Source of the DNA: a virus
Lineage: Duplodnaviria; Heunggongvirae; Uroviricota; Caudoviricetes
Direction: 5' to 3' (one strand)
Virus record (IMG/VR): IMGVR_UViG_649989948_000008
Coordinates: 1-39,032 of that record
DNA: 39,032 nt
In this document: positions 3,144 through 34,961 of the stretch, piece after piece
How the letters are laid out: every line of letters starts with the position of its first letter
Position numbering within the stretch: position 1 is the first letter of the stretch
Notes under the pieces: generated by a model
What the model was told of the DNA's origin: nothing
Database searches by the model: none
The model's input: only the letters and a program-made list of their open reading frames with translations
Translations under genes and position numbers: made by a program

Positions 3144-3407
3144 GTGTTTTTCCTTTGTGGTTATTTTGATACAAATTTTAAGAGCAATGAGAAGGTAAAC
3201 AACTATGCATAACGGTATGTTAGGAATGAAACGAGCATCTTAATATACAAAATTTATAAGTAAGTATATACCTATTTATCGTGGCGCAACTTTGCTTGTC
3301 TGTATGACTAAAAATAAGACAGGATCACTGTAGAACGCTATGAGAGCTATTTTGAGGAGGCGTAGATTCTATCTACGCCTATATACGATCTGGAGGGTTA
3401 CAGCGCG

Positions 3408-4043
3408 TCAGTGGGCTTTTTTACGCGCTGCGTTTATGCTTATGACGCCAGCTTTTGGACGTGGGTCAACAAGGTTAAGCTCTTCTTCGCTGTGGTATTC
3501 GAGGTCGAACTCACGTTTTACATGTCTGATGTAGATTGCGGTGAGCAGGCTATCTTTGGTCAGAAAGTGTCCGTAGGATTTGCGGATCACTTCTTCTACC
3601 TTCTCGATTTTCTCACCACCCATACAGAGATGATTAAACCGGCTGTGTTTCCGCAACATTTCGTCTACTGGGCCTGAGTAAACCTTGTCTACTTTCCCAA
3701 AACGGATGATTTTCCCTGTGTCTGCGGATACGAGGCAAATCAGCTTGTCTGGTGATAAACGATCTCGCCACGTCACACCTGAACGGAGTGTGTTGAAGTA
3801 GGGAGCATCCAATCCGATGATCGGTTTACGAAATGCGAGTAATGGAACGTACCTGATGCAACTGTTTAAATGAAAATTCACACCAGCCTTATCAAGTTTA
3901 ATTCTGGTTTCGTAGATCGGGCACTTCGCCGCTATACCGCAGATGTCACAAAGCAACTTCTGCTTATTCAGGTTGGAATTTGATTCGATAGTGTAGGAGC
4001 CGTCTTCAAGACGACGAACCCAGCGCGTGCGTTTTAGATCCAT
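3408..4043 (-). CDS. hypothetical Cys-containing protein next to the replication origin
   Basis: 211-aa ORF with ATG start; Cys cluster CDICGIAAKC; no family recognised by eye. Confidence 0.4.
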   Translation of the reverse strand: MDLKRTRWVRRLEDGSYTIESNSNLNKQKLLCDICGIAAKCPIYETRIKLDKAGVNFHLNSCIRYVPLLAFRKPIIGLDAPYFNTLRSGVTWRDRLSPDKLICLVSADTGKIIRFGKVDKVYSGPVDEMLRKHSRFNHLCMGGEKIEKVEEVIRKSYGHFLTKDSLLTAIYIRHVKREFDLEYHSEEELNLVDPRPKAGVISINAARKKAH

Positions 4044-4121
4044 ATGTCATTTTTCTGTGATTGTTAGCCGAGGCAACGATAACCCACCAGGTGCGCCGAA
4101 GGTAGTAAATGCCTGTTTTAA

Positions 4122-4138
4122 TTATTCACATATCCACA
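4122..4138 (+). promoter_or_regulatory. tandem DnaA boxes (TTATTCACA and ATATCCACA)
   Basis: First 9-mer matches the TTATNCACA consensus exactly, the second with one mismatch; located just upstream of the GATC cluster and iterons. Confidence 0.55.
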
Positions 4139-4143
4139 GGATA

Positions 4144-4202
4144 GATCCTAATAAAGAGATCCATAGATAGATCCTTATATAGATCAAATAAGATCCCCGA
4201 TC
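4144..4202 (+). promoter_or_regulatory. cluster of six GATC (Dam) sites in short AGATCC-type repeats; origin-like
   Basis: GATC at 4144, 4158, 4170, 4182, 4192 and 4199 within 59 bp; same arrangement as the P1 oriR methylation-dependent repeats. Confidence 0.55.
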
Positions 4203-4242
4203 GCTGTAAGCCGCGCCACGACTGGTCTGAAGTCATGTTCAT

Positions 4243-4344
4243 GTATGCTGTCAGCGGTAATTGATAGTCTGTCAGCGGTTCACCGTATGCTGCCAACTGT
4301 TTTTGGTATTCTGTCAGCGGCAAATCAAGTATGCTGTCAGCGGT
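4243..4344 (+). repeat. upstream iteron array (about 5 copies of TATGCTGTCAGCGGT-like repeats), incC/origin-like
   Basis: Copies at 4243-4258, 4265-4279, 4284-4300 (degenerate), 4305-4321 and 4328-4344, immediately 5' of repA. Confidence 0.7.
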
Positions 4345-4364
4345 TGAATGACAAAGGTGTCCAC

Positions 4365-5459
4365 ATGTCCACAAAAAATAAAAAAGGTAAAAATAACAAA
4401 GAAGTAGAAGATAACATCGACAACTTTGAAGAAGGTTCCCTTGAATTGTACACAGGGGAACTTGTCCCTAATAGCAACAATACAGTCCAACCAATTGCGT
4501 TGATGCGACTGGGGTTGTTCGTCCCCACGCTTAAGGGAACAAAATACAGTAAACGTAACAAGCCAAATGAGATCGATGCTTCAAAGGAGCTTGTCCAGCT
4601 CGAAGTAGCCCGTTCTGAAGGCTATTCCGATATCAAGATAACCGGTCCTCGTCTCGACATGGATCATGATTTCAAAACGTGGGTGGGCGTTGTGCGTTCG
4701 CTGGCAGAATACGGCGAACCTAACGGTCGTGTCGAGTTAAGCATCACGAAATTTGCTAAGTTTTGTGGCTATCCATCGTCACAGATCCGCAAAACACTCC
4801 GCGACCGGCTTACAAACAGTCTTTTGAAGATCATGCGTACAACTCTGTCTTTCCAGAGAACGTATGAAGAAAAGAACGTCGACGGCTCTAACAAGATCTC
4901 GCTTCTGATGGTGCACCTCATCAATAGCGTGGACTACAACGAGCAGAAAGATACGGTGGTGTTCTATGCAGAACCGAAGCTGGCCGAACTATATCGCTTT
5001 GACCATAAGGTTCTTTTGCAGTTAAAGGTTATCAATAAGCTACCACGCAAAGAAACAGCACAGGCTCTGTACACCTTCATCGAAAGTCTTCCAACCAAGC
5101 CTGCGCCGGTATCGCTTGCTCGATTGCGTGCGCGACTCAATTTGAGTAGCAGAAATGTCAGCTCGCAGAATCAGACTATACGTAACGGCTTAAAAGCTCT
5201 CCAAGATTTGGGCTATCTCGAATACAGCGAGATTAAGCGTGGGCGGTCGATCTATATCCAGATTCACAGCCGCAATCCAAAACTCAAAGTCGCACCGCCA
5301 AAACCTGAAGACATCGAACCCAAAAAACCAGATGAGAAAGCTGGGGAAATTGATGCCAAACAGAACATTATCAACAAGATAACCGAACTTTCGCAGAATT
5401 TGACGCCTGAAAATATCAAGATGATTGAGATCCTTTCCAATAGTCTCAAACTGCTTTGA
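4365..5459 (+). CDS. repA: iteron-binding replication initiator RepA (P1/RepFIB-like)
   Basis: 364-aa ORF flanked on both sides by iteron arrays; start chosen at the ATG at 4365 because the upstream in-frame part of the track ORF runs through the iterons. Family assignment rests on architecture and recollection. Confidence 0.65.
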   Translation: MSTKNKKGKNNKEVEDNIDNFEEGSLELYTGELVPNSNNTVQPIALMRLGLFVPTLKGTKYSKRNKPNEIDASKELVQLEVARSEGYSDIKITGPRLDMDHDFKTWVGVVRSLAEYGEPNGRVELSITKFAKFCGYPSSQIRKTLRDRLTNSLLKIMRTTLSFQRTYEEKNVDGSNKISLLMVHLINSVDYNEQKDTVVFYAEPKLAELYRFDHKVLLQLKVINKLPRKETAQALYTFIESLPTKPAPVSLARLRARLNLSSRNVSSQNQTIRNGLKALQDLGYLEYSEIKRGRSIYIQIHSRNPKLKVAPPKPEDIEPKKPDEKAGEIDAKQNIINKITELSQNLTPENIKMIEILSNSLKLL

Positions 5460-5576
5460 TATGCTGTCAGCGGTGAAATGTATGCTATCAGCGGCTATTT
5501 TTCTGAAAAGTATGCTGTGAACGGTTAAAGATATGCTACCAGCGGTATAGTGAGATGAACGTATGCTGTGAGCGGT
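5460..5576 (+). repeat. downstream iteron block 1 (5 copies), incA-like
   Basis: TATGCT(G/A)(T/C)(C/G)A(G/A)CGG(T/C) copies at 5460, 5481, 5511, 5533 and 5561. Confidence 0.7.
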
Positions 5577-5736
5577 AAATCATCTATCACCACTCAATGC
5601 TCTGTCATACCTCCCCAGTGGTTACTAACCTCGAAGAGTGCATTCCATATAGGTTTGCGCTCACTAACATTCTATTGCTATTGCGCTGATTGCTTGTAGT
5701 GAAAGGCATTTATTGCCTGCTACTCCCTGATAGAAC

Positions 5737-5991
5737 GTATGCTGTCAGCGGTGTTTTATTGAGGAATTTTTGTTTGGATATGCTATCAGCGGTAATTAAT
5801 GGTATATGTCAGACATTCGTATGCTGCCAGCGGTAATTTTGTTCTGGTTATACCCATACCGGGACACATTATTCATGCAATTTCTTAAGTATGCTGTCAG
5901 CGGTAAAAAATCGAGTAAAGTATGCTGTGAGCGGTGAGATAGACTCTCGATATGCTATCAGCGGTAGTTGATTGTGTATGCTGTCAGCGGT
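5737..5991 (+). repeat. downstream iteron block 2 (7 copies), incA-like
   Basis: Copies starting at 5737, 5779, 5819, 5889, 5920, 5951 and 5976; separated from block 1 by a 160-bp spacer. Confidence 0.7.
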
Positions 5992-6008
5992 GACGACTAT
6001 GAAATATG

Positions 6009-6030
6009 ACTGCGGAACGTGCCGCAGTCA
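6009..6030 (-). terminator. hairpin GACTGCGG-n6-CCGCAGTC just 3' of the 70-aa gene (weak U-tract)
   Basis: 8-bp perfect stem; the following T-run on the minus strand is poor. Confidence 0.3.
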
Positions 6031-6038
6031 GTTTGCAT

Positions 6039-6251
6039 TTAGTGTATTTTCTTTAACAGACCCCAAAGTGTTCCGGCTTTTGTAGTCAGTTTTCCTGTTT
6101 CTGGATCGTACATACGCCATTCACGCCGCTGGTGGACGATATACCCATCTTCACGTTCCAGACGCTCAAGAATGCCAGGCTGCTTGAAACCCTTAGCACG
6201 CCAGTAGCCGCTTGTTTTCTCGATTTCCAGACCTGCCAGTGTTAATGCCAT
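6039..6251 (-). CDS. hypothetical protein (70 aa)
   Basis: ATG start sharing one nucleotide with the stop of the upstream gene (TAATG). Confidence 0.4.
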   Translation of the reverse strand: MALTLAGLEIEKTSGYWRAKGFKQPGILERLEREDGYIVHQRREWRMYDPETGKLTTKAGTLWGLLKKIH

Positions 6252-6586
6252 TACCCAACCTCCTTGCAGTCATCGAAAAGGTAGCTTTGCTGAGAAGCGT
6301 GAACGCCATAGAAGCCCTTGTATTTGTTGTATACGAAGTGGTCTTCTCCGACGCCGGTTAATTTGCCATTACGATTTGTGAGATATGGGGATGACAACAC
6401 TCGATCGTCACGCACAACATAGAACTGGTCGCCGCTGTCTACGACCATCGCTCCATATGGTGCTTTTATGACGTCGGTAAGAGTGCCATTCTTAACGTCG
6501 GCTACAGACATTTCACACTGATAAACAGTGGTGTCGGCCACAACGATCGAAGAAAGAAACAACAGCGCGAATGGGATGGTCTTCAT
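6251..6586 (-). CDS. hypothetical secreted protein with N-terminal signal peptide
   Basis: MKTIPFALLFLSSIVVA signal-like N-terminus; RBS GAGGTGG upstream of the ATG. Confidence 0.5.
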   Translation of the reverse strand: MKTIPFALLFLSSIVVADTTVYQCEMSVADVKNGTLTDVIKAPYGAMVVDSGDQFYVVRDDRVLSSPYLTNRNGKLTGVGEDHFVYNKYKGFYGVHASQQSYLFDDCKEVG

Positions 6587-6762
6587 GCTGCCACCTCTTT
6601 GATTACATCAAATGCTGAATTAAATACGAGCACGATAGCCAAAGCGTTTATGACTACGTCGTGCACCGGGGAAAAGACTTTACGAATGACACCAGTGAAA
6701 ATGCAGTCGATGACAAAAGCTATTGAAACGATGAGTAACAAGTATTCAATAAAAATCTTCAT
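6583..6762 (-). CDS. small hydrophobic membrane protein (59 aa, below the ORF-track cutoff)
   Basis: Hand-translated MKIFIEYLLLIVSIAFVIDCIFTG...; stop overlaps the next start (ATGA). Confidence 0.35.
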   Translation of the reverse strand: MKIFIEYLLLIVSIAFVIDCIFTGVIRKVFSPVHDVVINALAIVLVFNSAFDVIKEVAA

Positions 6763-6875
6763 GATAGGTAGATACTAACTTATATAAACTTTACTGTAAA
6801 CTCACTCAAAAGTGCTGATGCTTAAAATACGCTCAAGATGTTCAGCATCTTCATTACTGATTTGTTGAGTCTCTT

Positions 6876-7076: not shown

Positions 7077-7131
7077 GTGTTTTTCCTTTTTTGGTTAGTG
7101 TTTACTTATTTTGTTAGTTATGAATAGGCGA

Positions 7132-7557: not shown

Positions 7558-7606
7558 GTTTTCTTATCCTTTTAAACAAATTGTTTTCTTAATAAGATAA
7601 TTTCGA

Positions 7607-7632: not shown

Positions 7633-7648
7633 GAACTTTTTAGGGGAG

Positions 7649-8683: not shown

Positions 8684-8746
8684 GTGTTTTCCTATGTGGT
8701 TGTTATGCGAAAATAATAAGTAAGTACTTATATATTTTCAAGAGAT

Positions 8747-8772
8747 AAAAAAGGCGTCCTGTGGACGCCTTG
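8747..8772 (-). terminator. rho-independent terminator after the RecA-like gene
   Basis: Stem AAGGCGTCC/GGACGCCTT followed by a T-run on the minus strand. Confidence 0.6.
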
Positions 8773-8775
8773 TGT

Positions 8776-11115
8776 TTACTCTTCTACTGACTCGGTGGGG
8801 TTGTCTTTTGCTCTTCGGTCGTCGATTGCCTGCAAAGCCGCAATGATTTCAGCCAGTGGCTTCTCCCGATACATCTCGACGATCTGCGATTTGGTGTATT
8901 TCTTGTCACCAATTTCAACTCGCCCGCTGGCGTTCTTTGGCAGGTATCCTTCTTCCAGCATGTACTCGACGAGCGATTCGATAACGTCGAGGCCACGAGT
9001 AGGATCGAAGTAGAATTTCCAGGTGCATTTGCCATACGGTGGTGCAACTTTGTTTTTGATGCATTCTGCGCCTACGTCCTGGCCGATCTTCTCTTTACCA
9101 TCCTTCATCACCGATGCACCAAGACGGATACGTACAGAAGCGTAGAACTTCGGTGAATCTCCACCTGGCGACGTAGTAGGGTCGCCAAACATTACACCGA
9201 TTTTTGTGCGAACCTGATTCAAGAAGATGATGCAGGCGTTGTATTTGCGTGCCCACAAAGCCAGAGTAGGGAAGTTCGCACTCGTCGCACGAGCCAGTGC
9301 CGTATTGTCGTTCATGTTTAGCTGATCTTTGTCTTTGGCTGTGCCTTCAGCCATCTTTTCGAACTTCTCGGCTTTGGAGTTCGGAACCATAGACGCAAGA
9401 GAGTCAGCCACGATACAGATAGGTGCTGATTCGGGGATAAGCTCTTCATCACGAACCAATTTAAGTATTGTGCCGATCAACTCTACAGAGTCTTCGAAGG
9501 TATCTGGCTGCTTGTATACCCACTGACCGTCATCCTCATCTGCGTTCAGGCCATTGGCTACAGCCAGGCCAACGTCAAAACTGTTTTCATGATCGAGGAA
9601 TACCGCCAGACCATCTTGTTTTTGAGCGGAGATCATCGCTGCTGTTGCAAGGAATGTGTTGTGGCTGATAATCCCGTTAGACCAGAAAGAGTGTGTTTCC
9701 GGCATCGCTACGTCGAACGTTGGTGCTTCACCTTCCTCAATAGCCACGACTTCGTCGTAGAACAAGTTAGAGCCAATTACCGCTGCCAGTTGTGCAAACA
9801 GATGCTCGTTAAAACGATTCTTTCTGCCAATGAAGGAGACATAGATTTCTCGCAGTTTGTCTATTCCGACACGATCGCCGCGGCCAATAACGTGGTCTAC
9901 CAGAGCGTAGTCTTCACGGGTGGTCTTGGTGAGCGACTCGTAGAGTGATTTCACTAAGCCGCTGATGTGCGGAACATAGCCTGAGTAAGTGCGGTCAAAA
10001 CCAATGTCCCGTTTGGTTGCCACTGATAAACGTGCCGGAGATTCGAAACCAATCGTTGACAGAAAAAGGTCGTAATTAGAGCCACTGAATGACAGCCGGT
10101 AATATGTATTTTCATAACCCGCGACGTGTTTTTCAGAGATAGTTGACGTAATCCCCAGATTCAGGAGCATGAGGCGAATTTGCTGTAGCAGCAGCCCACT
10201 CGCGCTCACAACCTCAATGCAGCGACCATCATTGACGTGGCATTCCAGCTCAAAGTAGCCGCGAAGGAATGCAATTTGAGCCTCGCTATTGGCGCGACGC
10301 ACACTCAACGGAACCTGCTTGCCAGCAGCTTTCTCATACTCCAGACCATATTCTTTAAAAAGCAGCGAACGCACCTCTTTGCTAAACAGCACATGGTCTT
10401 CCGAGCCGTTATGTTTTCTCGTAACTGGCATCTTGTCTGATACCAGCGAAATGAGGCGGTAGTACTCATCCTTGATGAAAGGATCTGTGTTAGAAAAATT
10501 CACTGAATTTTCAGAGGCCACGTATCCGTCAGCAATTAAATAGCCCATCAGTTTTGCGATATTGGCATCCAGGTGCTGATCGCCGAATTGATGTGTGCCA
10601 ACCATTGAAGGAATCGTGTCGCCTACACTGATTTTTTCAGCATGTCGCCAGACGACATTACCTAAGTCGTCAACCACACGGATTGGGTGACGGAACGTAG
10701 CCTCGATATAACCGCCTGATGCCAGCTTAATACGCTTGAATTTGCGACGGTTGTTCCATGTCAGGTGTGAGGTCTTCTCTATCACGCCATTTTCATTGAT
10801 GAGTCCAACGTTATGCTCTACATCGCGAGTAGTGCATGTCGCTTTGTACCCTTCAATCTCAAACAACTCTTTCACTGTTACCATTCCACGCTCCGTCAGC
10901 AGCATGGTGTCTGCGGTAACACATTTCCCCGCGCTTGGTGGCCCGAATACTTCTACGATACGACCACATGGGAAACCGCCATCGTAACGACCGGAAATCG
11001 CTTTGTTTAACGGAGGAAAGCCTGTGTCAATCCAATGAGTTACTTTCTGAATTTCGTCGTTGCTACCGATTTTCTTTTTCAGAGCAAGTGCCAGTGCGGA
11101 TTTTCCTTTTGCCAT
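8776..11115 (-). CDS. recA: RecA-family recombinase interrupted by an intein (779-aa precursor, ~357-aa predicted mature protein)
   Basis: Exteins resemble RecA: GRIVEVFGPPSAGK|..|TFLA (Walker A), VFLDHENSFD, VMFGDPTTSPGGDSPKFYASVRIRLG; ATG with AGGAG RBS. Confidence 0.8.
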   Translation of the reverse strand: MAKGKSALALALKKKIGSNDEIQKVTHWIDTGFPPLNKAISGRYDGGFPCGRIVEVFGPPSAGKCVTADTMLLTERGMVTVKELFEIEGYKATCTTRDVEHNVGLINENGVIEKTSHLTWNNRRKFKRIKLASGGYIEATFRHPIRVVDDLGNVVWRHAEKISVGDTIPSMVGTHQFGDQHLDANIAKLMGYLIADGYVASENSVNFSNTDPFIKDEYYRLISLVSDKMPVTRKHNGSEDHVLFSKEVRSLLFKEYGLEYEKAAGKQVPLSVRRANSEAQIAFLRGYFELECHVNDGRCIEVVSASGLLLQQIRLMLLNLGITSTISEKHVAGYENTYYRLSFSGSNYDLFLSTIGFESPARLSVATKRDIGFDRTYSGYVPHISGLVKSLYESLTKTTREDYALVDHVIGRGDRVGIDKLREIYVSFIGRKNRFNEHLFAQLAAVIGSNLFYDEVVAIEEGEAPTFDVAMPETHSFWSNGIISHNTFLATAAMISAQKQDGLAVFLDHENSFDVGLAVANGLNADEDDGQWVYKQPDTFEDSVELIGTILKLVRDEELIPESAPICIVADSLASMVPNSKAEKFEKMAEGTAKDKDQLNMNDNTALARATSANFPTLALWARKYNACIIFLNQVRTKIGVMFGDPTTSPGGDSPKFYASVRIRLGASVMKDGKEKIGQDVGAECIKNKVAPPYGKCTWKFYFDPTRGLDVIESLVEYMLEEGYLPKNASGRVEIGDKKYTKSQIVEMYREKPLAEIIAALQAIDDRRAKDNPTESVEE
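9658..10923 (-). mobile_element. intein with LAGLIDADG homing-endonuclease domain (422 aa) inserted in the RecA P-loop
   Basis: Starts with Cys (CVTADTMLL), TxxH block (ATFRH), LAGLIDADG blocks (LMGYLIADGYV, FLRGYFELECHV), ends ...ISHN followed by Thr; junction codons checked by hand. Confidence 0.8.
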
Positions 11116-13417: not shown

Positions 13418-13534
13418 GTGTTTCTCCTTGTTGTGATTTGGCCGATGGCGCTATGCGCGTTGGGCTTTCGTTCATTCGTGGCTCTTTCGAGCTGTTAAAT
13501 GATAGATCAGTACTTACTTATTATCTATCAAAAA

Positions 13535-14091: not shown

Positions 14092-15261
14092 TCACGACTT
14101 AATAGTTTCTGCTACGTCGGCTAATATCGCTTCTAGTCGTTCTCCCTCTTCAGGTCTGAAGTAAAGAATGTTGGGGTTAAACCCGTAAAAGACAGTAACG
14201 TCAAGGTCTGGAAGATACTCCTTCCTGCCGACCAAATCGGATGGCTTGTTTTTGTTGTTAAACAATGCCGTTGCCCGGCTACCACACGTCAGCACATAGG
14301 TCGGGCGCACCAGATTGATCTCTTCACGCATAAAGTCGGTGAACTGGCCGATCTCGTCTTTGGTGTAGTCCTTTTCTTTGTCTTTCACCTTTTTGCAAAC
14401 GCCTGTGACATAGAGATCGCCCATGCGCAAATCCCCAGCCGTCAACAGCTTGGCCTTAAAATCGTCGTATCCGTTCTCCATAAAGTAACCGGTTCGAGCA
14501 TCATTGCCGTTCGCATTGTCCAGAATGATCATGATTTTCGGCTTAATACCAATGCTGGGGCGGATTAGTTCATCACCTAAGCCCATTTCAGCCGCCATCC
14601 GCGTCATGAGTACGTTAATCTCAGCCGAACGTTTGGGGTTCATCTCAAACGGACGTGACGCTTTAACTGCGTCTATGACAAGGTTTCCCATCAATTCAGC
14701 CTGGTCGCGTAGGCGCTCTGGATCAGTTGCTGGCAGACTACCTGGCTCGATGGATGCAAACGCCCCTACTTTTTGCAGCGATTCGCGCACTCGACTATTA
14801 CAGGCACGTTTCTCGACAGCTTCTTCGAATTGCGCCAGTGACTCGAATTTGCCGCCAACTTTTTCTCGCGCTCTCATGATGGCTTGGCAGCCATTCTCAG
14901 AACACCCTTTCACAGCAGAGAAGGGCGCATACAGCACCTGGCTGCCATCTTCAAGCGTGCGGATCTCGATTCGGTTAGATGACACGTTAACGTCTGGTGG
15001 CAATACGCGAATACCATAGGTCAGCGCATCTTTAACCAGCCCCTGGTGTTTATCTTCGCCAAGAATAGTGAGAGCAGCAGCGAAGAACTCCGCGGGATAA
15101 TGAGTTTTCAACCACATAGATTGATAACTGATTAAGGAGTAAGCAACAGAGTGTGATTTGTTGAAGGCATACGCGCCGGATTTCTCAAACATATTCCAGA
15201 TTTCTTCGGCTCGTTCGTGCGTCAGGCCATTGCTCTCTTCGACAACACCGGTAATTTTCAT
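14092..15261 (-). CDS. dnaE: DNA polymerase III alpha-like (DnaE), C-terminal fragment of a split gene
   Basis: Begins within the conserved region AYAFNKSHSVAYSLISYQSMWLKTHYPAEFFAA; its ATG overlaps the HNH gene stop (ATGA). Confidence 0.75.
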   Translation of the reverse strand: MKITGVVEESNGLTHERAEEIWNMFEKSGAYAFNKSHSVAYSLISYQSMWLKTHYPAEFFAAALTILGEDKHQGLVKDALTYGIRVLPPDVNVSSNRIEIRTLEDGSQVLYAPFSAVKGCSENGCQAIMRAREKVGGKFESLAQFEEAVEKRACNSRVRESLQKVGAFASIEPGSLPATDPERLRDQAELMGNLVIDAVKASRPFEMNPKRSAEINVLMTRMAAEMGLGDELIRPSIGIKPKIMIILDNANGNDARTGYFMENGYDDFKAKLLTAGDLRMGDLYVTGVCKKVKDKEKDYTKDEIGQFTDFMREEINLVRPTYVLTCGSRATALFNNKNKPSDLVGRKEYLPDLDVTVFYGFNPNILYFRPEEGERLEAILADVAETIKS

Positions 15262-15992
15262 GCAGTCACCTCATCAATCTTCACGAACTCATACCCATTG
15301 GAGGCCAGCCAGTTCCGTTGGCGCTCCCAGCTCCATATCTCTTCACGCATTTCACTATGCAGGCGAATGTGGGCGTCTTCTGGAAGTGCTACAAGATTCC
15401 CAGGGGCGTTATCTATCGTATCGCGGTTAATATGGTGGACATGTTCATCGTCACGTAGCTCCCGACCGAGACGTTCTTTCGCTATCAATCGATGAACGTA
15501 TTCGTATTGCGAAACGCCATTGTTACCAACCAGCTGCATCATGTAGCCGTTGGTTTTTACGATGATGCCACCTTTGTAGTTGTTCGCTTCTTCTCCGATC
15601 TTTCCGCGTTTGGCAGCCGCCAGCTTTTCCTTCGTCTCCGCGCGGATTGTTCTGCCGGTTAGCTTTTTCGAAACGGTGGCCACTCGCTCATCGATATCAG
15701 CACGCAGACCGGCATTCCACGAGGTTTTCCCATACATAGGGTTGCCAGTGCCAGTCCGGGCTTCGGAGAGACGCTTCATACGTTCGTCATTATTTTTGTT
15801 TTTGCCACGATTCCAGGCTGGGGTAGCGGAGATCCGCGCGCTTCCGCGCCTGATCCCCCATTTGGCTAATAAGCGGTCAATATTTGCCTTGCTGCAACCA
15901 GCTTCGGCGGCAATGTCTTCTTTTCTCATCAGGTCAACCATGTAACGCTGACGTAACCATTCTTCTGTGATTTTGTACTTCGTACTCGGCAT
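15258..15992 (-). CDS. HNH homing endonuclease inserted between the two DnaE fragments
   Basis: HNH motif EHVHHINRDTIDNAPGNLVALPEDAHIRLH, NUMOD-like repeats and an N-terminal HTH-like segment; preceded by its own AAACAAATTGTTTTCTTA motif. Confidence 0.75.
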   Translation of the reverse strand: MPSTKYKITEEWLRQRYMVDLMRKEDIAAEAGCSKANIDRLLAKWGIRRGSARISATPAWNRGKNKNNDERMKRLSEARTGTGNPMYGKTSWNAGLRADIDERVATVSKKLTGRTIRAETKEKLAAAKRGKIGEEANNYKGGIIVKTNGYMMQLVGNNGVSQYEYVHRLIAKERLGRELRDDEHVHHINRDTIDNAPGNLVALPEDAHIRLHSEMREEIWSWERQRNWLASNGYEFVKIDEVTA

Positions 15993-16040
15993 TTCTAAGA
16001 CTCACTAAACAAATTGTTTTCTTATCTTATAAATTAATTC

Positions 16041-18404
16041 TCAAATATCGAAGCTCGTTATGTCGGCATTTATTGCCATTGCTTCGGCATAAGTGCGACG
16101 CTCACCATCAGCACAAAGTAGGCGTGCTGCTTTATGGATTTTTCTCGTAGAACCATCATCCAGTGACACTGTCACCCAGCCTTCCTCCGCTCGCTTAATG
16201 AAGTCGCCGCCAATGGATTTCATTTTCTCCATATCTTTTTTCCCGATCGCTTTCCTGACCGAGTCTGCTTCCGCCATTGAGAACCCCGCCAAGATTCGCG
16301 TAGCAGCCATGATCTGTTCCTGATAAATCAGAACTCCGTTTGTGTCGCGAGAGATGTCGTCCAGCATTGGGTGTAAGGAATGTGGGGCCATGAAGCCTTT
16401 GGCCACGGACACATAATCGTCCAACATGCCGGATTGAATCGGGCCAGGTCGGAAGAGCGCAGTTGTAGCGACGACCGTTTTAAAGCTCATTGGCTCAATT
16501 CCACCACCTAAATCTTTAAGCAGCTTGCGCATTGGGCCTGATTCAAGCTGGAATACGCCCTGTGTATACCCTGCAGCAAAACCATCCAGCACCTTGCGAT
16601 CTTCAAGAGAAATGGCATCAAGATTGATATCTTCACCTGTGTTCTCTTTTATGTAGCGTTTTGCACTATCGAGCAAATCGAGAGTTGCCAGGCCAAGCAC
16701 GTCCAGCTTAATTAGGCCCATAGCCTCGCAGTAACGCTTGTCAAATGCGATACAACGCGCGTCACCACGGCGTTCAACCGGTGTACGTTCTGTCAGAGGA
16801 ACACCTGCTACGATCATCCCTGCCGCATGTCTACCAAAGCCACGCATAAGGCTTTGTAACTTGCAGGCTGCATTGAATGCATCAGGATATTTTGTTGCGT
16901 ATTTGTCGAGACTTGCCAGTTGTTCGCGCAGCTCTTCCAATGGAAGGCTATCATCCTCGACGTTCTTCAGTTCTTTTGATACCGCCATATCTGCGGACTC
17001 CACACCATAAATACGAGCGGTGTCACGTAGTGCAGAGGCTGCGCCCAGGTAGGTGAAGTTCGGAATGCCTGCAACGTAATCTTCGCCGTAGCGTTCATTC
17101 AGATACTCGATCACCTCATGGCGACGTGCCTGGCTGAAGTCCAAGTCCGCATCCGGCAAGTCGAGACGCTCAGGGTTGATGAAACGCTCAAACAGAAGAC
17201 CGTGACGGATTGGGTCGACGTTGGTTATGCCTATGCACCACGCCACCAGAGAACCGGCAGAGGAACCACGACCAGGCCCAACGGGAATGCCAGTTTCACG
17301 ACTATGATTCATCAGATCGCGCACCATCAGGAAGTAACCACAGAATCCCAGGCGAGTCAGCGTGTCCATTTCGTACTTTAGCCGCTCAACATAAACCCTG
17401 TTCTCAGAAGCAGGTGGTGTGTAGCCAAACTCTTTTGTGGTAAGACGTTTACGCAGCCCTGCAACAGCCAGTTTCATAAGCGTTGCAGGCTCGTCGTCTG
17501 CCATCTTGGGCAGTGCTGGTGGCAATTCATGCCAGCGCCATGTGCAGGCATCGATAATGGAGTCCTGCGTTGTTGAGGCCATTGCAGCTGTTACTGGCAC
17601 ATCCATGCGAACGGAGAAGGCTTTAAGCGCCTCAAGGAGATGGCGACGACCATTGATGGCGTTATCTCGCTGGTGGGGGATACGCAGACGATGCGGCTGG
17701 TCGATTTTTATGTTGTTCGTAACCATGTGCGCAATGTCTTTAATGTCAGCATCGTCGATCGATTCGTAATAAGCGGGATAGAACGCTACTGGCTCTATTT
17801 TCAGTGCGCTGGCGACTTTCATCGCCCGGACGTTAATCTGGTCGTAGAATGGGGTAGGGTGCGGATAGACCACACTATAGAAGTTGTCTTTTCCACCCGC
17901 TGTAATCAGTGTGCTTATGATTTTTGCAAAATCGTTGCGTTGGAACACGCTACCGATGTCGGAAGTAAGCAGGATGATGTTGCCTTTGGCATATGTAGAA
18001 ACCAACTGTTCGAGCGAGAGACGCGGTACAAAGTAGAACTGTTCTCGTGTGTTGGCCACCGTCATTAGTTCGCAGATGTCGCGATATCCTTGCTCATTTT
18101 TAATTAGAGCGGTAAACGAGTAGTTACGTCCCCGCTCTAATGATTCCATACATCTCATAGATTCTTTAGCAAGTTTAGCCCGGTGCTCGTATGTGGGATC
18201 ATCAACAATGTTTAGTTTCACACCACAAATAACCGCCATGTCGTCACCAGCGGCACGTTGTAGTGGAATAACGCTCGCAATATTCATGCTATCTGCTGAA
18301 ATTACAGCGGTGTAGCCAGCTTCTCTGGCAATCTTCACCGCGTTTTCTGCTTTTAGAGCCGACTCCCCAAGTGAGAAGTCAGTTCGAACCATCAGTGCCT
18401 TCAT
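16041..18404 (-). CDS. dnaE: DNA polymerase III alpha-like (DnaE), N-terminal fragment (PHP and polymerase core)
   Basis: GRGSSAGSLVAWCIGITNVDPIRHGLLFERFINPERLDLPDADLDF and RHAAGMIVAG match the Pol III alpha core; ends just after RKAIGKKDMEKMKSIGGDFIKRAEEG. Confidence 0.8.
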   Translation of the reverse strand: MKALMVRTDFSLGESALKAENAVKIAREAGYTAVISADSMNIASVIPLQRAAGDDMAVICGVKLNIVDDPTYEHRAKLAKESMRCMESLERGRNYSFTALIKNEQGYRDICELMTVANTREQFYFVPRLSLEQLVSTYAKGNIILLTSDIGSVFQRNDFAKIISTLITAGGKDNFYSVVYPHPTPFYDQINVRAMKVASALKIEPVAFYPAYYESIDDADIKDIAHMVTNNIKIDQPHRLRIPHQRDNAINGRRHLLEALKAFSVRMDVPVTAAMASTTQDSIIDACTWRWHELPPALPKMADDEPATLMKLAVAGLRKRLTTKEFGYTPPASENRVYVERLKYEMDTLTRLGFCGYFLMVRDLMNHSRETGIPVGPGRGSSAGSLVAWCIGITNVDPIRHGLLFERFINPERLDLPDADLDFSQARRHEVIEYLNERYGEDYVAGIPNFTYLGAASALRDTARIYGVESADMAVSKELKNVEDDSLPLEELREQLASLDKYATKYPDAFNAACKLQSLMRGFGRHAAGMIVAGVPLTERTPVERRGDARCIAFDKRYCEAMGLIKLDVLGLATLDLLDSAKRYIKENTGEDINLDAISLEDRKVLDGFAAGYTQGVFQLESGPMRKLLKDLGGGIEPMSFKTVVATTALFRPGPIQSGMLDDYVSVAKGFMAPHSLHPMLDDISRDTNGVLIYQEQIMAATRILAGFSMAEADSVRKAIGKKDMEKMKSIGGDFIKRAEEGWVTVSLDDGSTRKIHKAARLLCADGERRTYAEAMAINADITSFDI

Positions 18405-18584
18405 GTGTTTTTACCTTTCTGGTTTTTTTGATTTTGTCATTGGGGAAGCCTACGAACTTCCCATGCATCGAAATCGCAACTTCTTTTGCTGATTGGTGAC
18501 AATCGGGCTTGTCTGGACACACCAGACAAGCCTTACCAGTTTCAGAAGCAGCGATAAGAGAGCCGAAACATCCTTTACGCACGA

Positions 18585-30384: not shown

Positions 30385-30439
30385 AAATAATCTTGTACTT
30401 ACCTATCGTTATTTGCGTAAAAAACGACGCGCGGAGAGA

Positions 30440-31216: not shown

Positions 31217-31291
31217 ACCAACTCCTAGCTAACAGATGAAAGTATTCTCACAGAAAGATAAGTAATCGTCTACTTATTTTAAAGGTGATTG

Positions 31292-32473
31292 TTATGATAG
31301 AGCCTTAATGCCCAAAACCTTGCTTTGCAACTCCAACTGTTTGGTATACGGTTTTGCCCGATAATAGGCTTTGATAATTTGTTCTGGCGTTGCACCGCCC
31401 GGGTCGAGTCCTTCCTCACCCAAACACGCAACTTTGACATTAAGACCGATACTGGTCAGTCGCCTGGCTGCGGCCATCGTGTTGCGTATAGCTTGCTTTT
31501 CACTATCCCACATCATGATCACATTACGTAATCCACGCGCCTTGAGCGTCAGGAACGCGCCTAACTGATCTTCTGCATCCTGAGTGGTGTTACCAGATAG
31601 ATGCATCCCGAACGTTCCTATTGGTTCCACGTAATCACGTAATGTTTCTTCGTCAAAAATAGCTCGTTTAACCCCCATAACATCGAACGCCCCCTCACAG
31701 ACAACTACAGTCTGTTTGCCGACTGCATTATGGCCGTTGTAGAGAAACTTACCTGAAGCTGGAAGTTGCATAGGAAAGAGGTAGCGGCGTTCTGCTGTAC
31801 CGGTAATGTCTCGTCCCTGAAATGTCTTCATTACCCCATCCAGATCGTAAACCGGTATCAGTATTCGCATATCGAATATCTGTCCTTTAACCTGATCTGT
31901 ATACGGATCTACATAGGCGTGCTTGCCTTCGACGCAGTATCGTAGGTCAAAATACTTTGCCATTTCAGGCGATATGTTTCGTTCAACCAGATAGTCTGGA
32001 AGACGGCCATCTATAGGAAGCTCGTAATGACGAGGGAGTGCAACTGGCTCCTCTAACTCGACTGTGCTTGCAAGCACTAGCTCTTCTTTCTTTGGTGCCC
32101 ACCCCTGGGAAAGAAGGGCGTTCTGCACATATTCCTCGAACTGTCGTCGTGATTTGCCGCTGTAGTGCTTGAGGAAGACCAGCTTATTGAACTGAATCTC
32201 TTCGGGATGATCACCAGCGAAGCATTTACCGACGCCACTGGTCAGATTGAAATATACCTTCCAGTTGGAGCTGCCGCATACCGGACACTCCTTGATATTC
32301 ACTTCACGACCGCGAGTACTCACGCCTCCACGTCGATAAACGATACCTTCAGTATCCAACCATTGTTCAAAATCTAATTCGGTAATTAGCTCTTTCAGCT
32401 CGCTCACGATAATTCCACTTTTAACAGGCAATATTGTGACCAACCTAAATGTTGATATAACATAAAGGCTCAT
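31292..32473 (-). CDS. DNA primase (zinc-ribbon plus TOPRIM)
   Basis: Zinc ribbon CPVCGSSNWKVYFNLTSGVGKCFAGDH and TOPRIM acidic motif VVVCEGAFDVMGV. Start placed at the ATG at 32473, which has the conserved start context (track ORF begins at 32545). Confidence 0.65.
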   Translation of the reverse strand: MSLYVISTFRLVTILPVKSGIIVSELKELITELDFEQWLDTEGIVYRRGGVSTRGREVNIKECPVCGSSNWKVYFNLTSGVGKCFAGDHPEEIQFNKLVFLKHYSGKSRRQFEEYVQNALLSQGWAPKKEELVLASTVELEEPVALPRHYELPIDGRLPDYLVERNISPEMAKYFDLRYCVEGKHAYVDPYTDQVKGQIFDMRILIPVYDLDGVMKTFQGRDITGTAERRYLFPMQLPASGKFLYNGHNAVGKQTVVVCEGAFDVMGVKRAIFDEETLRDYVEPIGTFGMHLSGNTTQDAEDQLGAFLTLKARGLRNVIMMWDSEKQAIRNTMAAARRLTSIGLNVKVACLGEEGLDPGGATPEQIIKAYYRAKPYTKQLELQSKVLGIKALS

Positions 32474-32554
32474 GTGTTTTTCTTTTGTGGTTTGGCAAAA
32501 GAAAAGTTGTTTCACCAATGAATCAAGCGTGGAGGTGTTCTCCACGCTTATTTT

Positions 32555-33895
32555 TTAGGTAACGTCTAAGATTCGCTCAATGAAGCGCATTTGTTCGAGG
32601 TTTTGTTTAACGCGAATGCTGATCCCTCCCTGCTGGTTACGTGAACCGGCAAAGTAGAGACGAGCCTCTCCTTTCGCTTCTTCTTCTTCGGTTTTGTTGA
32701 TCGTTATTACCAGGTCAGCAATACGTACTTTTTCGATGTTGTCGGCAGCGTGCATCATTGTGGCAACTTCTGACGCGCCACCTTCACGGTTTGTCTGCGA
32801 TGCCGTGATCCCAGCAACGTTATGCTTGTCATAAAGAGCACGTAAATCGGTGTAGATACTACGAATGTTGGCGCGATCATCACGAAGGTCATAACTGGCA
32901 CGCATCAAATCTGCGTAGTCGACAACAACCATGTCAGGTACCATGCCGTTGGCTTTCATGCTGTTAAGCATACGGTCCAGATCTGCCGGTGACATACTTC
33001 CTGACGGACGCTCAACCACCCACAAACTACCAATCCCCTTCGTGGCTCCCAACTCTGCCAACTTACGATGAACCTCATCGCGCCGTTCCACCAGCTTGGA
33101 CATTTCTGTCTCCGACAATCTTGCATCAAAACGGTCGGATAAAATGGTGGTGTGAACCTCCAGCGAGAGATACAGAACATTGTAGCCAGCAAGCGTTGCG
33201 TTTATGGAAAACTCACCCATTGCGGTCGATTTACCGGATTTAGCGAACCCCATGAAGAGCACCATTTCGCGCTTTGCCCAGCCTTTTTGGTACAGCAACC
33301 TATCGAGAAGAGGGAGTCCAGTTGTAATACTGTTTGGTACATACTCCTCTGAAGCCTCATATTCACGCGCTTTCAATCGCTCACTTGCGGAGGTGTAGTA
33401 GTCATAGATTCCGGTCGCTTCGTTCGATCCAATCTGCTGAACCCTGGCCATGATTGCCATCGCCCCCTGAAAGTCGCCTTTCTCTTTCAGTTCAGCAGCC
33501 TTAATCAGAGCATCATCAAACGCTACACTTTTTGCGAAGGTTGATACCTGGTCAACCATGTACGAGGTATCGGACAATTTTTCTGCAAGAATGCGCTTAA
33601 ACGCAGCAACAACATCGGCGAATAGTTCCTCACGGATAGTCTTATCGCGTTTCGCACGCTTAAGCATATCCAGAATTGCAGATGAAGAGGGCGCGCTCTT
33701 GTACATACGGTAATAGCCCGAAACCATATTAACCAATATGGCATTGGCCGCATTGGCAAACTGGCTAGGCACAACCAGATCTCCCGCACGAGTAAGAAAC
33801 TCGTGATCACGACAAAAATATGCCGTCAGTCTGTTCTGGAAATCTTCATCAAACTCTTCGGACAGCCCGCGTCCTGTATGGCAAAGTTCGGTCAT
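32555..33895 (-). CDS. dnaB: DnaB-family replicative helicase
   Basis: Walker A GFAKSGKST, Walker B VVVDYADLM, and ITASQTNREG resembling the DnaB SQLNR motif. Confidence 0.75.
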   Translation of the reverse strand: MTELCHTGRGLSEEFDEDFQNRLTAYFCRDHEFLTRAGDLVVPSQFANAANAILVNMVSGYYRMYKSAPSSSAILDMLKRAKRDKTIREELFADVVAAFKRILAEKLSDTSYMVDQVSTFAKSVAFDDALIKAAELKEKGDFQGAMAIMARVQQIGSNEATGIYDYYTSASERLKAREYEASEEYVPNSITTGLPLLDRLLYQKGWAKREMVLFMGFAKSGKSTAMGEFSINATLAGYNVLYLSLEVHTTILSDRFDARLSETEMSKLVERRDEVHRKLAELGATKGIGSLWVVERPSGSMSPADLDRMLNSMKANGMVPDMVVVDYADLMRASYDLRDDRANIRSIYTDLRALYDKHNVAGITASQTNREGGASEVATMMHAADNIEKVRIADLVITINKTEEEEAKGEARLYFAGSRNQQGGISIRVKQNLEQMRFIERILDVT

Positions 33896-33938
33896 GTGCT
33901 TTCCTTTGTTTTTTAAACAAATTGTTTTCTAGTGTTAG

Positions 33939-34679
33939 TTAATTAGATAGGGGATCAATAAACCGCCGTGCTTCTTCCAGTTCTTCTGGAAAGTGGGCGG
34001 AAATAAGGCGCTCTGGAACGATTTCCATTAGCCAGATAGCGGAGAAAATTGCGCGTATGCGCTTGCTGCGAGGGATGGTGCGCAAACGCTCCAGAATCCA
34101 CTCAAAATAGCTTTCCTGAATCGGGTTGAACTGCATGTCTCCCATATGCTTAAAGCTAACCAGAGAGTCATCCAGACGGGTTGTTGCGCGTCTGGCTAAT
34201 TTCTCTTCAAATATCTCAATCAGTTCTGGCTGCCACAAATGCTGTGGGCGCGGCAGCTTGTTCCACAGCCGTCGTGCAGCTGCGGAAAGAACGGTGGAGA
34301 TAAAGTAGTCGTATGAGCAGCAATAGCGATCCGCAAACTGGCGTGCTTTCCATAGCGACGTTTTATTGGCAGTCGACAACTCCTGATAAGGCAGGCGTTT
34401 TAACCCGGTGGTGAACGGAGCTGTTTCAAAGTGTTCGCGACCGTGCGTCAGCATGATATTTGAGTACTGACGTTTGTATGCCTCCGTAAAAAGACAGGTG
34501 GCCATGAGAGGATGCATGTCGCGGTAATCAAACCACTTCGTCTCGAAGAGTTCAGCCTCGTCTTTACAGCGCGACAAACCAATGTTTTCAGCGACCCACT
34601 TGTCCATAACAGCGGTATTCCACTCTGTCATGAAGTCGTACTGGTCGTTGTCGATGGTATCGAAAAAGATTTGGCTCAT
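33939..34679 (-). CDS. hypothetical protein upstream of the helicase (possible helicase-associated factor)
   Basis: ATG at 34679 with AGGTGA RBS (track ORF starts at a GTG at 34688); no motif recognised. Confidence 0.45.
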   Translation of the reverse strand: MSQIFFDTIDNDQYDFMTEWNTAVMDKWVAENIGLSRCKDEAELFETKWFDYRDMHPLMATCLFTEAYKRQYSNIMLTHGREHFETAPFTTGLKRLPYQELSTANKTSLWKARQFADRYCCSYDYFISTVLSAAARRLWNKLPRPQHLWQPELIEIFEEKLARRATTRLDDSLVSFKHMGDMQFNPIQESYFEWILERLRTIPRSKRIRAIFSAIWLMEIVPERLISAHFPEELEEARRFIDPLSN

Positions 34680-34961
34680 GTGGCTCACCTGGTAGGTAGT
34701 TACTTACTTATCACAATGAGCGGATGATAGCGACTGGTGGCAGTTTTTGGAAGTGGAAACGGAAGGGAGTTGTTCTGGTGGTGTCTTTTAAAAGACCTGC
34801 TTCCGTATATATTTAATAAGTTACTTATTATTTATATATACAGAAGCAGGCATAACTTGTCGTCTTAGACGCCCAGAAGCTCTACACTTTGAGCCTGTTA
34901 AATTGATTAAAAACTTATGTGTAAAATAGAACGCATTAGTCAGTAGCAAAGAGATGCAATA

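Follow-up and report, generated by a model that had tools for sequence, protein, structure and literature searches.

The window analysed here, a 39,032-nucleotide stretch of a virus record (IMGVR_UViG_649989948_000008), covers the early region of an E. coli SSU5-like phage-plasmid, with its replication and recombination genes. The palindromes dispersed through its intergenic spacers are copies of one 20-bp symmetric protein-binding site, placed at predicted promoters of silent lytic genes and most likely serving as operators of the element's own repressor. This operator circuit is undescribed for the SSU5-like family, though familiar in kind, and full-text literature searches returned nothing on lysis-lysogeny control in SSU5-like phage-plasmids. 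To this group belong pHCM2 (S. Typhi), pMT1 (Y. pestis) and several hundred plasmids of Klebsiella, E. coli and Enterobacter; its members are common among clinical Enterobacteriaceae and can carry resistance genes. They are also SOS-inducible (PMC9928086, PMC9600943). With the 20-bp site defined, about 28 putative target promoters mapped and a candidate repressor named, the lysis-lysogeny switch of these elements is open to direct test, and the site provides a simple sequence signature with which to annotate their transcription units.

The palindromes are copies of one 20-bp dyad

The original prediction had listed ten places with palindromes built on TAAGTA and TACTTA half-sites, separated by a spacer that seemed to vary from 0 to 6 bp, which it considered odd for a single dimeric repressor. 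The described sequences are present at all ten places, but the variable spacing is an artefact that vanishes once the sites are aligned to a single 20-bp palindrome with the halves ATARGTAAGT and ACTTACYTAT. Each half-site has a 4-nt periodicity, and this internal repeat (ARGT-AAGT/ACTT-ACYT) yields TAAGTA hexamers in two registers, giving the impression of a variable spacer. The geometry of the site is constant, at 20 bp with GTAC in the centre, and lends no support to a spacing odd for one dimer.

Within the window, ATAAGT-Nk-ACTTAT with at most one mismatch occurs at k=4 (n=4) and k=8 (n=5) and at no other spacing, compared with about 0.05 matches per k in 200 dinucleotide shuffles. Allowing up to 5 mismatches, the 20-mer ATARGTAAGTACTTACYTAT gave 16 raw matches, corresponding to 13 loci, against 0.3 raw matches in shuffles. 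Because both counts lie far above the shuffles, base composition is excluded as the cause, and the palindromes thus withstand the shuffled-sequence control for AT-rich composition that had been proposed for them. All 13 loci are intergenic, non-coding sequence making up 12.9% of the window, and 11 of the 27 intergenic gaps of at least 25 bp contain one. In a position frequency matrix of 68 SSU5-group sites, the dyad halves are conserved as sequence and not as base pairs: no covariation was seen, the two halves vary independently (R4/Y17, Fisher p=0.24), and deviations from the consensus break pairing in 173 cases and keep it in 66. This independence argues for a DNA site bound by a symmetric dimer rather than for an RNA hairpin.

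The sites of the window are listed below, with syntenic counterparts in Cyrano (E. coli), SSU5 (Salmonella) and pJN2-26 (Klebsiella; pJN in the list). Unless a strand is given, none was assigned.

3256 to 3275: motif site, 2 mismatches; reads ATAGGTATATACTTACTTAT on the minus strand; 112 nt ahead of an sbcD-like gene (start 3143); at its counterparts (Cyrano 63199, SSU5 63080, pJN 343) an extended -10 of the TGnCATAAT type comes next
6764 to 6783: motif site, 3 mismatches; overlaps a promoter-like TTTACA-17-TAGTAT; syntenic with Cyrano 59399, SSU5 58074 and pJN 104805
7090 to 7109: weak motif site, 5 mismatches; within a 55-nt spacer
8716 to 8735: motif site, 2 mismatches; fills the 17-bp spacer between TTGAAA (8741-8736) and TATTAT (8718-8713), directly after a terminator hairpin (8751-8771)
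13502 to 13521: motif site, 2 mismatches; lies between the hexamers of TAGATA-17-TATCAT, ahead of a gp32-like SSB gene
19879 to 19898: weak site, 6 mismatches; upstream of a CobS-like ATPase gene; weak syntenic counterparts at SSU5 45120 and pJN 93368
24698 to 24717: motif site, 2 mismatches; lies inside a 30-bp palindrome (24693-24722) as its core; comparison with relatives shows a mosaic break point here
27742 to 27761: motif site, 2 mismatches; upstream of a tRNA cluster (26993-26443, minus strand); syntenic with Cyrano 38252, SSU5 41773 and pJN 83366
30387 to 30406: motif site, 4 mismatches; after a T-tract and 2 nt from an ORF start (30384)
31244 to 31277, minus strand: motif site (31258-31277; 5 central mismatches, perfect outer arms), then a conserved extended -10, TGtGAGAAT (31252-31244)
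34692 to 34729, minus strand: motif site with 3 mismatches (34711-34692), covering about +7 to +26, 12 nt after a -10 TATCAT (34729-34724)
34809 to 34828: doubtful member, 5 mismatches; centre of a 56-bp palindrome, CCTGCTTCYGTATATAT...ATATATACRGAAGCAGG

Three of these sites (6764-6783, 30387-30406 and the weaker 7090-7109) had been overlooked, and the copy near 3256, previously described as weaker, is a good match to the 20-mer. The reverse applies to two others: the sequence reported at 19883-19898 exists, but it fits the 20-mer poorly, and the one at 34815-34829, likewise real, coincides with the AT-rich centre of a different class of palindrome, of which relatives carry three long examples per genome.

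The sites overlap predicted core promoters in several registers

As had been proposed, the sites are associated with promoters: they lie within about -40 to +26 of predicted core promoters. In one register the motif occupies the spacer of a predicted TTGAAA-17-TATNAT; in another it covers the -35 zone of conserved, predicted extended -10 promoters (TGTAAGAAT); elsewhere it lies at +1 of the predicted promoter of a helix-turn-helix (HTH) gene and at +7 of the replication operon. At the 8716 locus, alignment showed that terminator, -35, motif and -10 are all kept in Cyrano and SSU5. The replication operon, which encodes a 249-aa protein, a helicase and a primase, has its Shine-Dalgarno sequence and ATG directly after the 34692 site, and TATCAT/TATGAT plus site are kept at SSU5 33600 and pJN2-26 74983. 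Since the extended -10 follows the 31258 site, the motif there spans about -40 to -21 in a four-genome alignment; in this register, 12 extended -10 elements were counted on the gene strand and none on the opposite strand.

In the commonest register, kept in three diverged families, a -10-like TATnAT (TATAAT in pABTJ2) follows the dyad centre at a distance of about 7 bp. A -35 consensus at any fixed distance is absent from most sites, with no TTG signal among 68 SSU5-group and 29 Acinetobacter sites. At several sites the next start codon is only 1-17 nt away, a misfit to a simple promoter in the main register. MerR-type activator sites, in which the dyad sits in an over-long spacer of 19-20 bp between good -35 and -10 hexamers, were considered and rejected: those sites that do have a -35 show a 17-bp spacer, and no TTG signal was found at 19-20 bp.

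Near-consensus predicted promoters (10/12 positions) of capsid and membrane genes bear strong sites; these promoters must be shut off in the plasmid state. Genes expressed during Cyrano lysogeny include toxin-antitoxin modules, parA, repA and others (PMC9928086). Upstream of these genes we found no motif site, the best matches having 8-10 mismatches.

The motif is specific to SSU5-like elements

Motif loci number 27 in Cyrano, 28 in SSU5 and 30 in pJN2-26, each a genome of about 105 kb, and the same spacers carry the motif in all three while the flanks have diverged. The perfect 20-mer was found at 39 places on viral contigs of 37-112 kb, often several times per contig; this is the size of SSU5-like elements. 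Across 185,579 species-representative genomes (596 Gb), it occurred only as 13 scattered singletons, none of them in enterobacterial records.

Two Acinetobacter phage-plasmid groups encode diverged homologues of the HTH protein (48% and 30% identity), and each has its own dispersed palindrome of the same architecture, ATCAGTCAGT/ACTGACTGAT and TAGTAAGC/GCTTACTA. These parallel motifs suggest that the design is general for the phage-plasmid supergroup; since all proteins have diverged from one family to the next, the joint change of HTH and motif is not specific. Group-1 Acinetobacter plasmids also carry a gene annotated as Hfq.

A small HTH protein is the candidate repressor

The immunity region of the window contains the following features.

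22512 to 22557, plus strand: predicted promoter of the HTH gene (TTTACA 22512-17, 16-nt spacer, TAATAT 22534-39)
22586 to 22972, plus strand: XRE/lambda-Cro-type HTH protein, 128 aa, candidate repressor, with HTH_19 and phrog_8 matches

The sequence GGTAAGcaCTTACC before this gene had been taken for a related motif, and rightly so: it is the 14-bp core of the same 20-mer, directly 3' of a conserved TTTACA-16-TAATAT. The core, GGTAAGCACTTACC (22541-22554), covers about -5 to +9 of the predicted promoter. Promoter and core form a block of the immunity region that is conserved between E. coli and Klebsiella pJN2-26, and in the latter the core is a perfect palindrome, GGTAAGTACTTACC.

The protein is predicted to adopt a 5-helix XRE fold followed by C-terminal helices. 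Fold comparison gave weak hits to 434 Cro and lambda cI, and also to a Salmonella phage repressor, HigA and C-proteins. Its gene is expressed in the Cyrano lysogen of LF82 (PMC9928086). Only SSU5-like replicons carry members of this family, which share an invariant recognition helix, matching the invariant motif. Essentially every SSU5-like plasmid has it, at about one copy per helicase (Klebsiella 348 vs 345; Escherichia 230 vs 223; Salmonella 49 vs 49). The sole element without it is SSU5, a free phage isolate; Enterobacter plasmids match the SSU5 left flank at 99.1-99.4% identity up to the break where SSU5 lacks the module, and one of them, NZ_CP134668.1, has an annotated HTH homologue beside an integrase about 5 kb past that break.

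We therefore favour, at somewhat better than even confidence, a reading of the motif as dispersed operators of this 128-aa XRE repressor (22586-22972) in a P1-C1-like network. An element-encoded symmetric dimer, most likely the HTH protein, would bind the 20-bp dyad. During lysogeny, when the element is a plasmid, it would sit on about 13 sites within the window and on about 28 across the element. Each occupied site would overlap the core promoter of a lytic transcription unit and so shut out host RNA polymerase, and the weaker 14-bp core over +1 of the repressor's own promoter would confer negative autoregulation. The role of the HTH protein as binder, the repressive effect of binding and the true positions of the transcription starts are inferred.

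Alternative readings of the motif

Binding of the sites by the HTH regulator, as its operators, is the best-supported reading. The main rival, possible though we doubt it, is that the palindrome instead replaces the -35 hexamer, and that a phage-encoded dimeric activator distinct from the lysogeny HTH brings host sigma-70 polymerase to a -10 standing alone, in the manner of Lpa at the late promoters of P1. Copies downstream of sigma-70 promoters (HTH gene, replication operon) would then be repressing sites in lytic growth. The lack of a fixed-distance -35 signal in both site collections fits such an activator, and the main register looks like an activator-dependent class such as P1 late. The TATnAT overlaps the gene-proximal end of the site, with a strand asymmetry that is strong in Acinetobacter (C3 93% vs G18 55%); pABTJ2 sites end in a perfect TATAAT; and full-promoter predictions with -10 start positions 18 and 21 fall on the gene strand by 17 to 4. 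Sites often come directly after terminators with no other promoter in view, lysogeny-expressed genes have canonical -35/-10 promoters without the motif, and P1 late promoters share both the plan and the AAGT/ACTT half-sites (AAGTNACTT-N4-TANNNT). However, no Lpa (PF25716) homologue was found, the best E values being 0.97 by tblastn and 0.64 with an HMM built from 11 Lpa homologues and run against all ORFs of three genomes. The one candidate activator is a weak winged-helix protein. The registers also differ (-40 to -21 at extended -10 promoters, +1, +7), near-consensus TTGAAA-17-TATGAT promoters, on which some of the best sites lie, would fire constitutively in lysogens if no repressor bound there, and the motif is the only conserved palindrome at the HTH promoter. 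Equally tentative is the corollary that the palindrome defines a phage-plasmid-specific promoter class (A-rich tract, 16-20-bp dyad near -19, -10 and no -35) read by a putative element-encoded dimer. Such an architecture with family-specific dyads occurs in SSU5-like elements and the two Acinetobacter groups and echoes the P1 Lpa box; if this is true, phage-plasmids would widely drive whole lytic programmes in a non-homologous, 'Lpa-like' manner.

The sites could also be operators of another element-encoded protein, acting alone or sharing them with the HTH, but this seems improbable. One candidate, the 88-aa winged-helix CYRAN_123/SSU5_130, has a weak LexA-type match and is conserved in SSU5, pJN2-26 and Acinetobacter group 1, yet it belongs to a motif-preceded operon in the lytic direction, is not reported as lysogen-expressed and is tied to the sites by no motif-independent evidence. 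The other, a Cro-like 70-aa product of 22123-22335, is encoded divergently from the HTH gene, in the classical cro position, but has no recognisable DNA-binding domain. We give very little credence to a role as hairpins at the RNA level (processing, termination or translational control, for instance by the FljA-like CYRAN_114) or to a by-product of AT-rich composition or multi-frame stops. Several sites do adjoin Shine-Dalgarno sequences or start codons, and the FljA-family protein (PF03614, 1e-80), which has a weak Hfq-like segment, is kept in the three enterobacterial elements examined. Still, the dyads lack compensatory variation, their stem is AT-rich without a T-tract, they come after terminators rather than form them, and BLAST detected no FljA-like gene in Acinetobacter. 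Composition is ruled out by the shuffles, and as stop signals the 20-mer closes only two frames, which Acinetobacter variants lose. A host transcription factor common to Enterobacteriaceae is just as hard to credit: E. coli, Salmonella and Klebsiella elements do share one identical motif, but the perfect form is missing from enterobacterial chromosomes among the species representatives, and Acinetobacter relatives use other palindromes alongside diverged element genes. The motif is not known to match any host site consensus.

Comparison with known phage regulatory systems

The proposed repressor network resembles that of P1 C1, in which a plasmid-prophage with many small transcription units, about 45 (PMC10695390), repeats a repressor site on individual promoters, including that of the repressor gene; in the P1 record, C1 operators are annotated at lpa, c1, coi and cre. 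The P1 operators, which are asymmetric, are annotated as 17-bp 'monovalent' or 'bivalent' sites, whereas here there is one 20-bp perfect dyad, and the candidate repressor is a small XRE-fold protein; the resemblance is functional only. Moreover, the roughly 28 sites here also cover structural-gene promoters, which in P1 depend on Lpa.

Eleven Lpa-type late promoters are known in P1 (PMC10695390); they combine a 9-bp inverted repeat centred on the Lpa box position of about -22 with a -10 and have no -35. Most sites here have an AAGT/ACTT palindrome directly upstream of a predicted -10 without a -35 (AAGTACTT-N3-TATnAT inside the 20-mer). They differ in being 20 bp rather than 9 bp long, in lacking a central base and in a dyad centre that is nearer to the -10 by about 1.5 bp. 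Other copies of the motif sit at +1, at +7 or across the -35 zone of extended -10 promoters, and the motif precedes replication as well as late genes.

The CI and Cro proteins of lambda, 434 and P22 are XRE-fold HTH dimers that bind 14-18-bp dyad operators. The predicted 5-helix fold, the dyad at the repressor's own promoter and the small divergent gene all recall these phages, but the sites here are spread over the genome instead of clustered in one immunity region. We found no S24 peptidase domain in the HTH protein, a further difference from the lambda-type repressors, so SOS induction must go through something else. The element shares with temperate repressor/operator systems a dyad of 14-20 bp and an element-encoded, lysogen-expressed HTH protein with a putative operator at its own promoter.

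The sites are not LexA (SOS) boxes, as they do not fit CTGT-N8-ACAG. That pattern has a single match in the window, at 24099-24114, a genuine LexA-like box, and the ATAAGTA at 24103, absent from the original list, is part of this box and not a copy of the motif.

Identity of the window and its gene content

By megablast, the window falls among the SSU5-like phage-plasmids, with 96-98% identity to the E. coli phages Cyrano, PhiR41_1, and CMS-2020a and ~79% identity to Salmonella phage SSU5 and Klebsiella phage-plasmids. Set against the Cyrano annotation, it corresponds in reverse complement to the ParA-SbcCD stretch, which encodes replication and recombination proteins (helicase, primase, ligase, DnaE, UvsY, a gp32-like SSB, RecA, RepA, and SbcCD) along with tRNAs, an integrase, a 'putative repressor', and CobT/CobS-like genes. 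Nearly all genes in the window are on the minus strand. Its dnaE (14092-18404), intact in Cyrano, is interrupted by an HNH/NUMOD3 homing-endonuclease gene (15258-15992), and RecA (8776-11115) is a 779-aa protein that includes a LAGLIDADG-containing intein, compared with 358 aa in SSU5. Positions 1-232 correspond to an IS/'mobile element protein' sequence that lambda-like records also contain, and the SbcC-like ORF beside it (206-1828, 540 aa) appears shortened relative to that of Cyrano (~638 aa).

A single 20-bp palindrome recurs in intergenic spacers

The original prediction described palindromes with TAAGTA / TACTTA half-sites separated by a variable spacer, and the stated sequence is present at every place it listed. 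The window has 16 exact copies of ATAAGTA, of which 15 fall between genes; the copy at 24103 is part of a LexA box. When we searched for ATAAGT-Nk-ACTTAT with at most one mismatch, only k=4 and k=8 were enriched, with 4 and 5 copies in the window (~0.05 in dinucleotide shuffles), 8 and 8 in Cyrano, and 8 and 11 in SSU5. The 4-bp step between these classes arises from an internal repeat within the motif, and a gapless alignment fits every site to a single palindrome, ATARGTAAGT-ACTTACYTAT (hyphen at the dyad centre). The variable spacer is therefore an artefact.

Allowing up to five mismatches to this 20-mer, the window contains 16 raw matches, or 13 loci, compared with 0.3 in shuffles, and the same search of Cyrano, SSU5, and the Klebsiella element pJN2-26 returned 31, 36, and 34 raw matches, each against 0.25-0.4. 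Dinucleotide shuffles thus rule out composition or chance, the explanation that a shuffled control had been proposed to address. Non-coding sequence makes up 12.9% of the window and holds all 13 loci, which occupy 11 of the 27 intergenic gaps of at least 25 bp. The list of sites needed amendment: the copy at 3256, called weaker, is a good site, and three others (6764, 30387, and a weak one at 7090) had been missed. The supposed copy at 34815 is really the centre of a 56-bp palindrome, CCTGCTTCYGTATATAT...ATATATACRGAAGCAGG (34795-34850), flanked by the replication operon and a divergent GIY-YIG ORF (34962-35729, plus strand). This palindrome is a separate class of element, present in three copies per genome in Cyrano (~31.17, 78.1, and 108.35 kb), SSU5, and pJN2-26; could it be an origin, packaging, or partition site?

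The motif resembles a DNA site for an element-encoded protein

The motif is kept in the same syntenic spacers across the E. coli, Salmonella, and Klebsiella elements, where the adjoining spacer sequence has diverged. Its halves vary independently: R4 and Y17 are uncorrelated (Fisher p=0.24; 17 A/C combinations), and non-consensus pairs disrupt pairing in 173 cases and retain it in 66. Such independence points to recognition of the DNA by a two-fold symmetric protein rather than to an RNA or cruciform structure, and the lack of covariation between halves led us to reject an RNA hairpin or terminator. We also rejected a three-frame stop signal, as the 20-mer stops in two frames only and its Acinetobacter variants do not retain these stops.

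The perfect 20-mer was found at 39 places on viral contigs of 37-112 kb, often several per contig. A search of 596 Gb of species-representative genomes produced 13 scattered singletons, none in enterobacterial records. Given this near-absence from host genomes, the binder is predicted to be encoded by the element itself, and the regulon of a host transcription factor was set aside because host chromosomes are without the perfect motif.

Homology with relatives ends at 24201 (PhiR41_1), 24515 (Cyrano), and 24689-24696 (Klebsiella elements), and these breaks directly adjoin a strong site at 24698-24717. Conserved 20-mers may serve as recombination joints between modules.

Motif sites overlap predicted core promoters

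The sites had been placed in promoter-like spacers, and they do overlap predicted core promoters; the register differs from site to site.

Motif sites relative to predicted core promoters
8716: register a, within the 17-bp spacer and overlapping the -10; terminator, TTGAAA, 17 bp, TATTAT; conserved in three genomes
13502: register a; TAGATA-17-TATCAT
Outside the window, 3' end of the portal gene: register a; TTGAAA-17-TATGAT; best-conserved site overall
31258: register b, over the -35 zone of a conserved extended -10; TGtGAGAAT or TGTAAGAAT; four-genome alignment
XRE-type regulator (HTH) gene: register c, over the predicted transcription start; TTTACA-16-TAATAT, then directly GGTAAG(C/T)ACTTACC
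34692: register d, ~+7 to +26; after a conserved TATCAT/TATGAT, immediately 5' of the replication-operon ribosome-binding site

Across 68 sites, TATnAT appears at positions 18-23 (A22 57%, T23 66%), and these sites have no -35 consensus at any fixed distance from the motif. On the gene strand, -10 starts of 18, 21, and -3 are over-represented among full-promoter predictions, and TGn-hexamers starting at motif-relative positions 27-30 number 12 on the gene strand and 0 on the other. A MerR-type site was rejected, the spacer length being wrong. The related palindrome predicted just upstream of the HTH gene is indeed there and, with its promoter, forms the sole block conserved from E. coli to Klebsiella in that upstream region.

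The mazG-thyX spacer (4452-4650 in the Cyrano region L004; SSU5 72341-72560; pJN2-26 9606-9835) holds two motif sites. Downstream of the first, 70-100 nt of variable sequence lead to a strong, conserved terminator (TGGTGGCC...GGCCACCATTTTTTT), and this unit could be the source of a small non-coding transcript; the second is immediately 5' of the thyX ribosome-binding site.

The HTH protein is a candidate binder

22586-22972, plus strand: ORF for a 128-aa protein with an XRE-type helix-turn-helix

The predicted structure has a five-helix domain and C-terminal helices, and places the protein in the lambda/434 XRE fold class. Fold matches were all generic (C-proteins, HigA, phage repressors, 434 Cro), with nothing about operators that could be transferred, and a sequence search of solved structures gave one marginal match only, an entry labelled as a LexA-type SOS repressor. 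A single-sequence query against genome contigs returned no matches. The homologues found lie almost exclusively on Enterobacteriaceae contigs of 100-116 kb, and in PLSDB the protein matches the element's helicase in number of plasmids within each genus, pHCM2 and pMT1 being among its carriers. From E. coli to Klebsiella, neither its helix-turn-helix segment (…GYKNxNNLSLIKSGK…) nor the motif changes.

In Cyrano lysogens, the HTH gene is expressed ~10-fold over local background (PMC9928086). We found no motif upstream of lysogen-expressed genes (toxin-antitoxin pairs, parA, repA, and others), where the best matches have 8-10 mismatches; the HTH gene, itself expressed in the lysogen, has a weak core-only copy. 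The phage isolate SSU5 presents an apparent objection, retaining the motif without the integrase-HTH module. Enterobacter plasmids, however, align with its left flank (99.1-99.4% identity) as far as the place of the missing module, and one of them, NZ_CP134668.1, has an HTH homologue annotated beside an integrase ~5 kb past that break. This makes SSU5 a recent deletion derivative, which fits a plaque-forming isolate having lost its repressor and disposes of the objection.

Repressor or activator

On balance, we favour the motif copies being operators of the candidate HTH repressor. A full-text search of the literature found no description of the motif or of any SSU5-group operator; functionally, the closest system is the dispersed network of operators for C1, the P1 repressor. 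P1 late promoters offer a different model, that of an activator-type element: they consist of AAGTNACTT, 4 nt, and TANNNT with no -35, and many motif sites are similar in architecture, with a fixed main register, no -35, and terminator, motif, and gene in direct succession. Neither tblastn nor HMM searches, however, found a homologue of the P1 late-promoter activator Lpa in the element. The motif also lies at -40 to -21, +1, and +7, positions that a repressor tolerates but an activator does not. Some of the best sites are in near-consensus sigma-70 promoters of capsid and membrane genes; without repression at these places, such promoters would be constitutively active in the plasmid state. The motif is the only conserved dyad at the HTH gene's own promoter. 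These points make the activator reading, a strong competitor, less likely than the operator reading, and it is more improbable still that the sites serve another element-encoded binder, such as the conserved 88-aa winged-helix protein or a Cro-like partner. With the motif and its candidate repressor, the switch between lysis and lysogeny becomes testable in a plasmid family that is common in clinical settings; the two would be conceptually surprising only if the activator reading were true.

Acinetobacter relatives have their own palindromes

Acinetobacter phage-plasmids encode HTH homologues and carry dispersed palindromes of their own. In group 1 (NZ_CP115642.1), the homologue is 48% identical, with helix RPNVLSMIKSGE, and the palindrome ATCAGTCAGT-ACTGACTGAT occurs at 28 loci; like the SSU5 motif, it spans 20 bp with a central GTAC and 4-nt periodicity. 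The group 2 (pABTJ2) homologue is ~30% identical to the group-1 protein, and its palindrome, TAGTAAGC-GCTTACTA, usually continues into a perfect TATAAT. The dyad centre in both groups is ~7 bp upstream of a -10-like hexamer, with an A-rich tract alone at the -35 place. These sequences show a palindrome design that is apparently ancient and general within the supergroup. The binder is not revealed by them, since every protein differs between groups; the covariation of HTH and motif across SSU5 and the two groups is real but non-specific.

An annotated sigma-70-family protein in these elements (18154-18819 in the pABTJ2 region; 79397-80065 in NZ_CP115642.1) is encoded between a MoxR/CobS-like ATPase gene and dnaE; no homologue was found in SSU5-like elements.

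A possible SOS link and a conserved FljA-family protein

Ciprofloxacin induces Cyrano (PMC9928086), and mitomycin C induces other SSU5-like elements (PMC9600943). The candidate HTH repressor is without a peptidase domain. The integrase gene, which starts at 24070 on the minus strand, is preceded at 27 nt by a LexA-box-like sequence, CACTGTATAAGTAAACAGTA (24097-24116; 16/20 to consensus), that is conserved in Cyrano (41046) and pJN2-26 (88948, 18/20). The integrase gene runs towards the HTH gene and shares positions 22967-22972 with its 3' end, so SOS-induced transcription would run antisense into the putative repressor gene, a possible route of induction.

An FljA-family protein ('repressor of phase-1 flagellin', PF03614, E=1e-80), whose own gene is without a motif site, is conserved as CYRAN_114 (L004 32791-33312), SSU5_121, and pJN226_0046. 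Its C-terminus has a weak Hfq-like match.
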